Origin: Leucoraja erinacea | Lineage: Eukaryota | NCBI RefSeq assembly: GCF_028641065.1 | Contig: NW_026576728.1 | Span: 1 to 64,000 of the forward strand | DNA length: 64,000 nt | Direction: 5' to 3' | Shown: positions 1,668 through 14,619 of the stretch, piece by piece | Position numbering within the stretch: position 1 is the stretch's first letter | Layout of the letters: the number at the start of each line of letters is the position of its first letter | Notes under the pieces: generated by a model | Told to the model about the DNA's origin: nothing | Databases searched by the model: none | The model's input: only the letters and a program-made list of their open reading frames with translations | Position numbers and translations under genes: made by a program

Positions 1668-1682
1668 ATGGGCAATCAACAG
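1668..1682 (+). CDS. PLAAT gene A first coding exon (MGNQQ)
   Basis: ATGGGCAATCAACAG|gtaaat. Homologous mini-exons precede three other copies (20110, 27292, 34875). Confidence 0.75.
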
Positions 1683-4600
1683 GTAAATTTATTTGAATAC
1701 TTTTATTCTCAGTTCTGGTCACTGGGCAGGTGCTGGTTATCGATGCTCAGACATATTGTCTCCATCAGTCATAAAGTGTCTGAGCTCAACAACCTACACC
1801 CAGAGCCGTGGGAGACTGTGGTCTGCTGACAGTGGGCCGTACACGATGTGTGTTGGGGGGATTTTCCTGAACTTTCCCTCGTTCATATGTGGTGTTCAGA
1901 GCTTCCACCGATGCCATGGTGGAGCTGATGCCGGCTGTGATCAGGCACCGACACACAGCCCAAAGAAGGACGCGTTGTGGCATTTGGCAGGCCTCCTCAG
2001 TCATGGACGTAGGGTGATGTGGGGAGCGTGAAGTCAGAGGGTAAAGCGGGCTCTGGTTTTAACGCGCTGTTGTGTGGGGGGGGGGGGGGTGGGCATGCGG
2101 CGTCACACACACACTAACTACCCCCCTTGATATATTAATATTATTCATTTGGTCCTTTTACCCCATAACCGCCCTATCCACTGACACATAGCCCCCAACT
2201 CGCAGGCATGTCTTGAGGGGGAGGAGGAGTAGAGAGTGAGGGCAGAGATAGAGGGGGGGCAGAGACAGCGAGTGAGAGGGGCAGAGACAGAGAGGGGCAG
2301 AGAAAGAGAGAAAGGGGGGTGGAGGAGAGGAGGTGGAGGAGAGGGAGGATGGGTGGCGGAGAGGAGGGGGGGGAGAGAGTGAAGGGGAGGNNNNNNNNNN
2401 NNNNNNNNNNNNNNNNNNNNNNNNNNNNNNNNNNNNNNNNNNNNNNNNNNNNNNNNNNNNNNNNNNNNNNNNNNNNNNNNNNNNNNNNNNNNNNNNNNNN
2501 NNNNNNNNNNNNNNNNNNNNNNNNNNNNNNNNNNNNNNNNNNNNNNNNNNNNNNNNNNNNNNNNNNNNNNNNNNNNNNNNNNNNNNNNNNNNNNNNNNNN
2601 NNNNNNNNNNNNNNNNNNNNNNNNNNNNNNNNNNNNNNNNNNNNNNNNNNNNNNNNNNNNNNNNNNNNNNNNNNNNNNNNNNNNNNNNNNNNNNNNNNNN
2701 NNNNNNNNNNNNNNNNNNNNNNNNNNNNNNNNNNNNNNNNNNNNNNNNNNNNNNNNNNNNNNNNNNNNNNNNNNNNNNNNNNNNNNNNNNNNNNNNNNNN
2801 NNNNNNNNNNNNNNNNNNNNNNNNNNNNNNNNNNNNNNNNNNNNNNNNNNNNNNNNNNNNNNNNNNNNGAGGGGAGCTGGGCAGCAGCGTCCCCACCATG
2901 CGCCAGGCCTGAGCGAGGCCCGGGGCGATCTGAGGACTATCAAAAGCTTTTCCACCGTGCTTCCCCGCGCCCGTGCTGCGATAACAACCGCCGCAACCAT
3001 GTTGTAGAACTTCAAGGAGCCCATGGAGCACACAGCACGTGTATAGCGGCTTCAATCCAGAGCCCTGGGGTGGGGGGAGAGGGCGGCTGGGCCACGTAAA
3101 TCGCAGCTCGTGGAAAACAGTGCCCAGCAGGGTGCGCGGTGAAAACTCTGCGCAGCTTGCCGTGAGGAGCAGAAGCATTGTGACGTCATCCAGCTCGCTT
3201 CAGCTCGTTAGATTTTAAAATGATCTCAGATTGGTGAACAATTTTAGTAAAAAAACCCGGGAAATAATAAATCAAATTTTCAGATGAGGCGATTTTTGAG
3301 ATCATGAAGTAAATCCCTTCTGGAATATGTAATAATTTCACCATTAGCGCGTCGGGTTTTCGAGGAGATGTGAATCAAAGAAAAAGAGAGAAGGGGAGGG
3401 AGAGGGAGGGGGGGGGGGGGGAGGGAGAGAGAGAGAGGGGGAGAGAGAGGGAGAGAGGGGGGAGAGGGAGGGAGAGAGAGAGAGAGGGGTGGGGCGGCAG
3501 CTCGCGGGGGCCCGAGCTGAGGACGGTGAAAAGCAGCGGGGACCAGCCGATCGTGGCTTCCGTTAAGGGAAGCGCACCCACCAGCGAGACAGTGCCGGGC
3601 CGGGGGGGAGACAGACGATCGGGCCTCCCCGGAGAGGAAGTCGCCCCTGTAACGGGTAGAGAGGAGGTGAGAAGAGGAGGATCCAGGCGAGTGAGTGGGC
3701 TGCGAAATGCGGAGAGAGACAGAAGCGGCCTCTGACTCTCTGGAAACCCACAGCTGGAATGAGCGGGCGGGCGGGCGGGCGGGGGCTTCACGAGCTGCAC
3801 GGGCAGCACGGAGAAGTTTCAGCGCGTGAGGCGTCGCTGACCCCGAGATCTGTAGAACAAAGATCCTATAGCGGAGCTGAACAGAAGAATCTTTGTTCTG
3901 CAGAACTTTCTCTATCTTTCTGCGCCTTTTGAAGAACGGGGGGCGGGGGGTGGCTTGGCGAACATACCTCGTGGAAAACTGCGCATGCGCGTTGACAGCA
4001 ACTGCATTAATCCGCGGCAGCGGGGGGCGGGGCCAGGAGGCAGGTGTGCCTCGATTGGTGGGCATGTGGGCATTGTGACGTTAGCAGCAGGGAAGCGGCG
4101 ATTATTTTAAAAAATGAGTTTTGTTTATTCAAAATCTGGGGAAATAATTGACTGAATTTAGAGAGGAGTGGATTTTTGAAATCATCAGTTAAACCCCTAC
4201 TGAAATATGTAAACATCTCTGCGTTTTTGCGTCTGTTTTCGCGGAGTAACGAATCAAATGCAAAATAAATGACATACACNNNNNNNNNNNNNNNNNNNNN
4301 NNNNNNNNNNNNNNNNNNNNNNNNNNNNNNNNNNNNNNNNNNNNNNNNNNNNNNNNNNNNNNNNNNNNNNNNNNNNNNNNNNNNNNNNNNNNNNNNNNNN
4401 NNNNNNNNTAGCCCAACTGCAGCTCTTTGGGAACCTCCTTCTGCATATCAGCCTTCCGTTTCTGTTAAATATGAGAGATGTCAGTGCTTTCTCTCGACCT
4501 GCTCAACGGGAAATTCAACAGCTTTCTCAGAAACGCCAATTTATAATGCGCCATAACTTACCTGGGTTTCTTTCACTTTCATATTTATCTGGCTCCTTGA

Positions 4601-13600: not shown

Positions 13601-14619
13601 CAGGTAAGTACAGTATATAACGTGGACATAAAGTCATTGTTCTTTGACGGGCCTGAGATTACTTTGGGGACTGGTCCTCCAGCGAATTATTGTCCCTCCA
13701 AATGCATGGGACATGATGGTACAAGAATGTTATATGTACGCCTCTACGCTATACGCCTCTACTTCCTTAGAAGTTTGGCATGTCCCCTACAACTCTCACC
13801 AACTTCTACAGATGCACCATAGAAAGTATTTTATCAGGATGCATCACATCTTGGTTTAGGAACAGCTCCATCCAAGACCGCAAGAAATTACAGTAAATTG
13901 TGGATGCACCCCAGACCATCAGACAAACCAACCTCCCTTCTATTGACTCATACCTCATGCTGCCTCGGCAAGGCCATCAGCATAATCACAGACTAGTCCA
14001 GTAGGATTCTGCTGGTTTTATCTTGTACTAAACGTTATTCCCTTATTGTGTATCTATACACTGTGAATGGCTCGATTGTAATCATGTATTGTCTTTCTGC
14101 TGACTGGATAGCACGCAACAAAAAGCTTTTCAATGTACCTCAGTACACGTGACAATAAACTAAACTAATGTTAACTGGCTGGCTTATGTATATTTGGCAG
14201 TGAGATCCAACTGGGTTGAGGATTGGGGTAATGTTTAGACTAAAATAGTAATGCTTTGAAGGGAAGGGGTGGCAAAGGCAAAAGTGGCAGTCACCAGAGG
14301 TCATGTCATCGATGACATCACTTAGAATCACTTGGAACATTTCTACTGTAGAATCCATTGCTATACTTGAAAATATCTTTTTTTTTCACAGGTTATTGCA
14401 GGAATCGTCATAATTGGTGTAACGGCCATCTTCAGTCCTGTTGCTGCTGTTGCTGCACTTGGTGCCGCCTGCCTTTTCAAGGTTTGTTCTTGTGTGAGCT
14501 CATCAGTGAAAAGCGCATCAGTGAAAAGCACATCAGTGAAAAGCACATCAGTGAAAAGCACATCAGTGAAAAGCGCATCAGTGAAAAGCACATCAGTGAA
14601 AAGCACAAAACAAACCTAG
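1668..14619 (+). CDS. PLAAT/HRASLS-family gene A with two tandem catalytic modules (exons 1668-1682, 7213-7315, 7444-7709, 13107-13209, 13338-13603, 14392-14619; ~326 aa if all spliced)
   Basis: All junctions are GT-AG and in phase. The motifs PGDLIEI, YKHWALY, VVHL and NCEHFV occur twice, followed by a hydrophobic C-terminal exon. Intron 1 contains N gaps. Confidence 0.8.
2062..4279. repeat. GC-rich repeat insertion(s) with assembly gaps, specific to gene A intron 1 (class uncertain)
   Basis: Absent from the paralogous introns (compare 8670 and 28080). Two related blocks at ~3175-3380 and ~4070-4279. GA-rich tracts. Confidence 0.45.
4508..4580. promoter_or_regulatory. Putative immune enhancer: NF-kB-like GGGAAATTCA, GAS TTCTCAGAA, IRF-E CTTTCACTTTC
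   Basis: Three motifs within 73 bp, repeated at 8814-8886, 28221-28293 and 35797-35869. Motif match only. Confidence 0.5.
5223..5236 (+). promoter_or_regulatory. ISRE consensus AGTTTCTGTTTCCT in PLAAT intron 1
   Basis: Matches AGTTTCNNTTTCY. Also at 11036, 21568 and 28936; mutated at 36861. Confidence 0.55.
5625..5985 (+). mobile_element. 3' fragment of a restriction-like-endonuclease non-LTR retrotransposon (HERO-like); duplicate at ~11435-11795
   Basis: KYEELV..C...[15 protein letters not shown]...AEKASRWLW motif. Confidence 0.7.
5986..6830 (-). repeat. GC-rich interspersed repeat with an L2-like (TTA)n tail; duplicate at ~11796-12660, related element at ~14670-15370
   Basis: Minus strand ends AAAGCGCTATATAAATT...(TTA)n. 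Absent from the B and C copies. Confidence 0.55.
7213..7315 (+). CDS. PLAAT module A1 exon 2 (H-box)
   Basis: ttccag|[34 protein letters not shown]|gtaaaa. Confidence 0.92.
7444..7709 (+). CDS. PLAAT module A1 exon 3 (NC motif)
   Basis: ttctag|DGASG...[24 protein letters not shown]|gtaagt; 266 nt. Confidence 0.93.
8189..8285 (+). mobile_element. Short Penelope-derived element with a 7-bp TSD (CAGATTC)
   Basis: CAGATTC at 8182-8188 and 8286-8292; empty site near 39053. Confidence 0.7.
9008..10513 (-). mobile_element. 5'-truncated Rex1/Babar-like LINE with an open RT ORF (9201-10478)
   Basis: [45 protein letters not shown](CTTGA)n tail. Absent from the paralogous intron near 4700. Confidence 0.92.
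13107..13209 (+). CDS. PLAAT module A2 exon 2 (H-box)
   Basis: [34 protein letters not shown] with canonical splice sites. Confidence 0.92.
13338..13603 (+). CDS. PLAAT module A2 exon 3 (NC motif)
   Basis: DGASR...[18 protein letters not shown]|gtaagt; 266 nt. Confidence 0.93.
14392..14619 (+). CDS. PLAAT gene A terminal exon: hydrophobic segment plus (SVKS[T/A])7 tail
   Basis: ttttcacag|[37 protein letters not shown](SVKS[T/A])x7KQT*; ATTAAA at 14636. Confidence 0.82.
   Translation, partial: VIAGIVIIGVTAIFSPVAAVAALGAACLFKVCSCVSSSVKSASVKSTSVKSTSVKSTSVKSASVKSTSVKSTKQT
14503..14607 (+). repeat. Coding 15-bp minisatellite x7 (TCAGTGAAAAGC[A/G]CA)
   Basis: Direct inspection. Confidence 0.95.

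Follow-up and report, generated by a model that had tools for sequence, protein, structure and literature searches.

We analysed a 64,000-nucleotide (nt) stretch of the skate Leucoraja erinacea (assembly GCF_028641065.1, contig NW_026576728.1, positions 1 to 64,000), called the window below, which is the start of the 73,068-nt contig C1547. Near its beginning lies a PLAAT gene, here gene A, with two intact, in-frame catalytic modules (A1 and A2) before a single hydrophobic anchor. We hold it probable (about 0.6) that gene A makes one chain with two separately folded phospholipase/acyltransferase domains, the anchor-proximal one being the predicted main enzyme and the front one likely free to diverge or to lose catalysis. 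The six exons of gene A are:

1668..1682, + strand, exon 1, five codons with a phase-0 donor; paralogous first exons lie near 20110, 27292 and 34875
7213..7315, + strand, module A1 exon 2, with both triad His
7444..7709, + strand, module A1 exon 3, carrying the nucleophile Cys of the NCEHF motif and a phase-0 donor
13107..13209, + strand, module A2 exon 2, its acceptor the same as that of A1 over 60 nt
13338..13603, + strand, module A2 exon 3, its donor the same as that of A1 over 31 nt
14392..14619, + strand, sole terminal exon (exon 4), a hydrophobic anchor followed by a 15-nt repeat coding a Ser/Lys/Thr-rich tail

All six exons have GT/AG ends, and an ATTAAA follows the terminal exon at 14636. 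Exons 2 and 3 of each module total 369 nt with phase 0 at both ends, and the duplicated DNA of A1 and A2 is ~97% alike. An earlier note on this DNA had placed the exons at these positions and had deduced phase-0 joins, a 326-residue two-module frame and skip forms of ~203 residues. Canonical splice sites were found at all six places, and splicing in silico reproduced an open 326-amino-acid frame when the exons were joined co-linearly and 203 amino acids for each skip of one module. The two full catalytic triads that it had reported are also there: the triad columns of A1 and A2 read His/His/Cys, and both modules match Pfam LRAT. The 15-nt coding tandem repeat after the anchor (14497-14607) varies among paralogs and between two Amblyraja isoform models. 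Read-through from A1 exon 3 (7710-7922) stays open for 70 codons, and the next AATAAA or ATTAAA comes only at 9168; a soluble, intron-terminated form of gene A made in this way is possible, if unsupported.

The 326-amino-acid protein contains two LRAT stretches (PF04970, E 6.6e-68), each with the His/His/Cys triad and the NCEHF motif. The PLAAT triad is Cys113-His23-His35, the first His acting as general base (PMC4624172, available text). Human PLAATs have one catalytic module per chain, unlike the gene A chain, which carries two in frame as read from genomic DNA. AlphaFold2 returned two confident domains, with a predicted local distance difference test score of 80-96 for most 10-residue blocks. 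These model domains match the PLAAT2/3/4 crystals at 1.7-3.6 Å with 43-50% identity, and the target template-modelling score (TM-score) against 7zom, 4dpz and 4dot is ~0.9. Each domain of gene A is a PLAAT domain, and the whole chain is a variant of the family. The hydrophobic segment of exon 4 (best 19-residue hydropathy 2.5) was modelled with low confidence.

The earlier note had pictured the protein as a covalent pseudo-heterodimer, whose domains would pack together or swap helices and share active sites. A domain-swapped dimer is indeed known for a chimera of HRASLS3 and LRAT (4q95), a constitutive homodimer unlike native HRASLS, and the available part of that study attributes it to an LRAT-specific hairpin (PMC5133064). 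The skate domain aligned to PLAAT3 without an insert and so lacks this hairpin, which in LRAT lies between strands 3 and 4; since native PLAATs are without the LRAT dimer insert, the rationale for a pseudo-heterodimer is weak. Furthermore, the whole-chain model had a predicted TM-score of only 0.46 although each domain was confident, so that no fixed packing of the domains is predicted. A predicted complex of the A1 and A2 domains scored 0.26 against a mark of 0.34 and gives no verdict either way. We regard the pseudo-heterodimer as very improbable. The two domains would instead act as beads on a string, with no obligate pseudo-dimer.

The modules are joined through intron sequence. The join also occurs on a second contig, C918 (213,717 nt), which holds four further modules, those of genes X and Y described below. 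Two features of the A1-A2 interval bear on its origin:

8311..8312, + strand, non-homologous junction of intron 3 (+602) to intron 1 (+10); 131 nt are identical at C918:190037 and C918:211627
9008..10513, − strand, fragment of a retrotransposon of the type without long terminal repeats, with an open 270-aa reverse transcriptase frame

A join of intron 3 to intron 1 at 8311 had been described before, with an offset of ~8 nt; we count 9 nt of intron 1, including the donor, as absent, and microhomology at the join is 0-1 nt. The interval 7710-13106 had been called gap-free and devoid of a first or terminal exon, and three scans of it agree. It contains no N; six paralogous first- and last-exon queries found no exon-1 or exon-4 remnant, only three 18-19-nt matches; and none of its 13 candidate acceptors, one being the A2 acceptor at the interval edge, opens a hydrophobic exon. 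Two unreadable N stretches lie in intron 1 of gene A (2391-2868 and 4280-4408).

In favour of an assembly or haplotig misjoin at 8311, the cluster is spread over two small contigs, no listed piece of one DNA run bridges the junction, and depth is low at 8400-8791 in that run, which is from another organism and swamped by repeats. Against a misjoin, the identical non-homologous join occurs three times in diverged contexts, each of the three copies has private substitutions on both sides, and a two-domain model is also found in a second skate species. We give a misjoin almost no weight; on this sequence evidence the junction is almost certainly real. Relative to both C918 copies, the window copy has diverged by ~0.4-0.9% downstream of the junction, against 2.6-3.0% in the introns upstream of it, and by this measure the junction is young. 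The thrice-seen junction with its private variants thus bears out the proposal of an internal duplication or a fusion of neighbours. These two routes are inseparable because both yield the same junction. Over the 364 nt that follow it directly, four first introns are about equally close. The retrotransposon at 9008..10513 occurs in the introns behind the junction and also in the first intron of gene Y, and intron 1 of gene A lacks it; it is this insertion alone that indicates a Y-type donor. On the simplest reading, a single non-homologous break would have brought together intron 3 from one unit and the first intron of a Y-type unit; the 8311-type junction would later have come to stand behind three different modules through unequal crossing-over.

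Gene X (C918:184752-198468, 437 aa) has a first exon, three modules and a terminal exon, and two different junctions, the second of which, unlike that at 8311, sits between its modules 2 and 3. A 3-nt deletion in exon 2 of these two modules is also found in the Amblyraja double gene. Gene Y (C918:205661-213717) has a first exon, one module and the same junction as at 8311, and then meets the contig end. Its 193-aa RefSeq model, which reads into intron 3, is probably a contig-end artefact. The first module of gene X has a His-to-Asp change; Asp replaces the first triad His in first modules B1 and C1, of two skate sister copies, and two of the three junction-bearing first modules lack this His. 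Each of the six modules in genes A, X and Y has an open frame and intact splice sites. PLAAT genes of one, two and three modules thus stand side by side among near-identical skate copies. A genome search with a close single-domain relative (22 matches, 27 candidates) found close copies only on C918 and C1547. The two contigs are probably adjacent pieces of one array, since one edge of the array lies on C918 and the other, toward a PACS-family gene, on C1547; partial allelism of the two is the less probable reading.

Between A1 and A2 the exons have diverged more than the nearby introns (18/369 against 13/702 differences, Fisher p = 0.007), and 16.5 of the 18 exon changes are non-synonymous. 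The encoded domains differ at 15 of 123 residues, five of these within residues 74-82 and four within 122-125. Greater divergence of exons than of introns was seen in 15/15 module pairs, which are not independent of one another.

The 326-aa protein had been taken for a new one; an identical protein is, however, already in RefSeq (XP_055487521.1), and multi-domain models are widespread in chordates. RefSeq also models a three-domain protein in the skate and a two-domain protein, with two isoforms, in Amblyraja (XP_032871127/8.1). We surveyed the 150 best listed of 863 representative relatives. At least two full LRAT domains were present in 44 of the 150, 29 of them with gaps of <= 15 residues between domains; because the scoring favours multi-domain proteins, 44/150 is no family-wide frequency. 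Such models come from rays, shark, teleosts, bowfin, lizards, birds, marsupials, bats, rabbit and amphioxus, the named carriers being flatfish, bats, stingray, thrush, lizards, bilby, rabbit, bowfin, sparrows and amphioxus. Further multi-LRAT models are XP_055522112.1, rabbit PLAAT4 (XP_051689122.2), gecko XP_060110853.1 and halibut XP_034432933.1. The premise that mammalian PLAATs have one domain therefore holds for the human enzymes and fails for the rabbit PLAAT4 model.

Whole two-domain proteins were also found on Logan contigs of 1156-1843 nt (P0059, P0179, P0180, P0207, P0213, P0222 and P0226), two of the seven clustering with rabbit PLAAT4. These contigs are so short for genes with introns that they are probably spliced transcripts. 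Among the skate proteins derived from Logan, none spanned the module joint in the 120 + 120 listed of 350 and 690 matches.

In the 44 multi-domain relatives the first domain was dead and the last intact in 19, the reverse held in 3, both were intact in 13 and both dead in 9, while 57 of the 64 single-domain relatives had an intact triad. In rabbit PLAAT4 the first domain reads Asp/His/Ser and the two domains are 36% identical. Models P0043, P0179, P0180, P0208, P0209 and P0215 (rabbit, elephant, tenrec, horseshoe bat) have a front domain with the first His changed to Asp and the Cys to Ser, followed by an intact domain; an old placental two-domain PLAAT gene possibly lies behind them.

A midpoint-rooted tree, limited to 36 cartilaginous-fish domains, paired the two horn-shark domains (100/100) and the two Amblyraja domains (100/99) and grouped the stingray domains with ray genes (99/98). 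The pattern points to separate origins in skates, stingray and horn shark, or to concerted evolution. A nearest-neighbour test of independent origins was mixed, with the own sister domain nearest in 17/46.

The modules of gene A could also be alternative cassettes, with either A1 or A2 placed between the shared first and last exons to give two 203-aa enzymes. Both skip forms are in frame, and the modules differ at the 15 residues placed as given above. In mutually exclusive cassettes, double inclusion is blocked by a frameshift, a short intron or unlike splice sites, docking and selector RNA elements pair, and transcripts carry one module only. Here the frame survives double inclusion, 5.4 kilobases of intron separate the modules and both have identical splice signals; nothing visible thus forces exclusion of a module, RNA pairing elements lying outside the search. 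In other species, short contigs carry complete two-domain frames. Given the phase 0-0 joins and the matching splice signals, co-linear splicing would take in both modules. We judge the cassette gene unlikely and the 326-aa double-domain protein the likelier product, the double splice being argued from anatomy and precedent; minor skip forms would probably accompany the double-module transcript.

Several points count against, or limit, the case for a two-domain protein with a less constrained front domain. Four of the 23 listed sequencing runs were aligned to 7420-13290, and repeats dominated. Mean depth in exon bins was 0.8 and 1.7 for RNA run X23 and nil for X16. In X15 a single RNA contig of 344 nt was listed on exon 3; its 11 mismatches and its T at 7653 fit only paralog F among nine modules. 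No 7709-to-13107 joint was among the 15 listed (204 more are unlisted), which at almost nil exon coverage speaks neither for nor against the double splice. The Logan contigs were assigned to RNA by size and may be retrocopies, RefSeq multi-domain models may have been joined ab initio, and fused annotations probably account for some of the multi-domain hits, as with macaque P0024, whose first domain shares 99% identity with a single-domain protein. The ratio of non-synonymous to synonymous changes per site for A1 against A2 was 3.0 and not significant (p = 0.38), and p fell below 0.05 in only 1/36 module pairs, uncorrected. In a second set (37 multi-domain of 86 new relatives), first-dead/last-intact proteins numbered 12 against 4 for the reverse (p = 0.077), and support for the asymmetry is overstated in both sets because the rows are related by descent. 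Finally, both gene A triads are intact, so specialisation of front and back has not happened in gene A.

Gene A could instead be a near-neutral by-product of a churning array, in which a phase-symmetric doubling is tolerated while the front copy decays or the gene is barely expressed. Module number varies from 1 to 3 among near-identical genes, the junction is young, the first His is lost in two of three junction-bearing first modules, and no gene A RNA appeared in the listed output of runs with almost no exon coverage. On the other hand, none of the six modules in A, X and Y has lost its open frame or splice sites, exons outpace introns in every one of the (non-independent) pairs, and dead front domains are full-length in several mammal groups. 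We consider a by-product rather unlikely. Our preferred account, of one chain with two separately folded domains, reads gene A as an early-stage concatemer, with two predicted active domains, one anchor and a less constrained front; it is placed early because neither triad has been lost and its two domains remain 88% alike. More tentatively, and with more doubt than confidence, we suggest that vertebrates have repeatedly evolved an undescribed class of multi-domain PLAATs whose anchor-proximal domain remains catalytic and whose front domains turn into pseudoenzyme modules for lipid binding, substrate presentation or decoy under pathogen pressure. The skate array may show this in progress, in its one-, two- and three-module genes, its young spreading junction, the excess exon divergence and the two His-to-Asp front modules.

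Further features adjoin gene A in the window:

20069..40013, + strand, three single-module PLAAT paralogs, D, E and F, of the same tandem array

The 3' halves of genes D and E (22856-25355 and 29913-32403) are 97% alike, and the exon-2 region of D matches other paralogs; by its sequence, gene D is a mosaic from conversion or unequal crossing-over. Paralog F (34875-39954) has AGG at the position of the first-exon ATG, and its RefSeq start lies further upstream. PACS-family exons (Pfam PF10254) lie downstream of the array at 50555-60654 on the − strand; human PACS1 shares a chromosome arm with PLAAT2-5.

The skate gene alone is modest news, because automatic annotation already models the protein. 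The wider pattern is weightier: PLAATs are held to be single-domain, yet tandem forms recur in chordates, the rabbit, a laboratory animal, included, and are often front-dead. We found no description of tandem- or multi-domain PLAATs in the literature covered, mostly without subscription papers and supplements. By analogy to PLAAT4, gene A would encode a lipid enzyme that serves innate defence or membrane remodelling. In humans, PLAAT4 restricts hepatitis A virus and has an interferon and antiviral link (PMC10201418), and bat PLAAT4 is induced by double-stranded RNA and copy-variable (PMC10415932), as far as the available parts of these reports go. A shrew has > 30 plaat3 duplicates, the accessible text mentioning no multi-domain forms (PMC10760033).

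PLAAT2-4 (PF04970; 4dot, 4dpz, 7zot) resemble the gene A domains in triad, NCEHF motif, fold and C-terminal hydrophobic tail; unlike them, the gene A chain has two catalytic domains, almost no linker and a repetitive Ser/Lys/Thr tail. LRAT and the HRASLS3/LRAT chimera (4q95) share superfamily and triad with the skate domain, which, being without the LRAT-specific hairpin, offers no basis for domain-swapped dimerisation. Predicted multi-LRAT PLAATs have the same head-to-tail domain repeat as gene A. Among these, rabbit PLAAT4 differs in its Asp/His/Ser front and 36% identity between domains, against two intact triads and domains 88% alike in gene A. If functional, gene A would be an early and rabbit PLAAT4 a late stage, a pair that would allow a direct test of the role of a PLAAT pseudoenzyme domain. 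The front domains of OAS3 and A3G are inactive. OAS2/OAS3 and the double-domain APOBEC3 enzymes (A3B/D/F/G) are likewise tandem-fused catalytic units in volatile innate-immune arrays, and the passages available describe the N-terminal A3 domain as freed for other roles (PMC4420275, PMC8266076). The likeness is one of working alike, with no homology: the PLAAT fold is unrelated, the substrates of OAS and APOBEC3 are nucleic acids, and an immune role in the skate is suggested by analogy only. If the two-domain forms are functional, PLAATs would be, like OAS and APOBEC3, enzymes whose evolution proceeds by concatenation of units.

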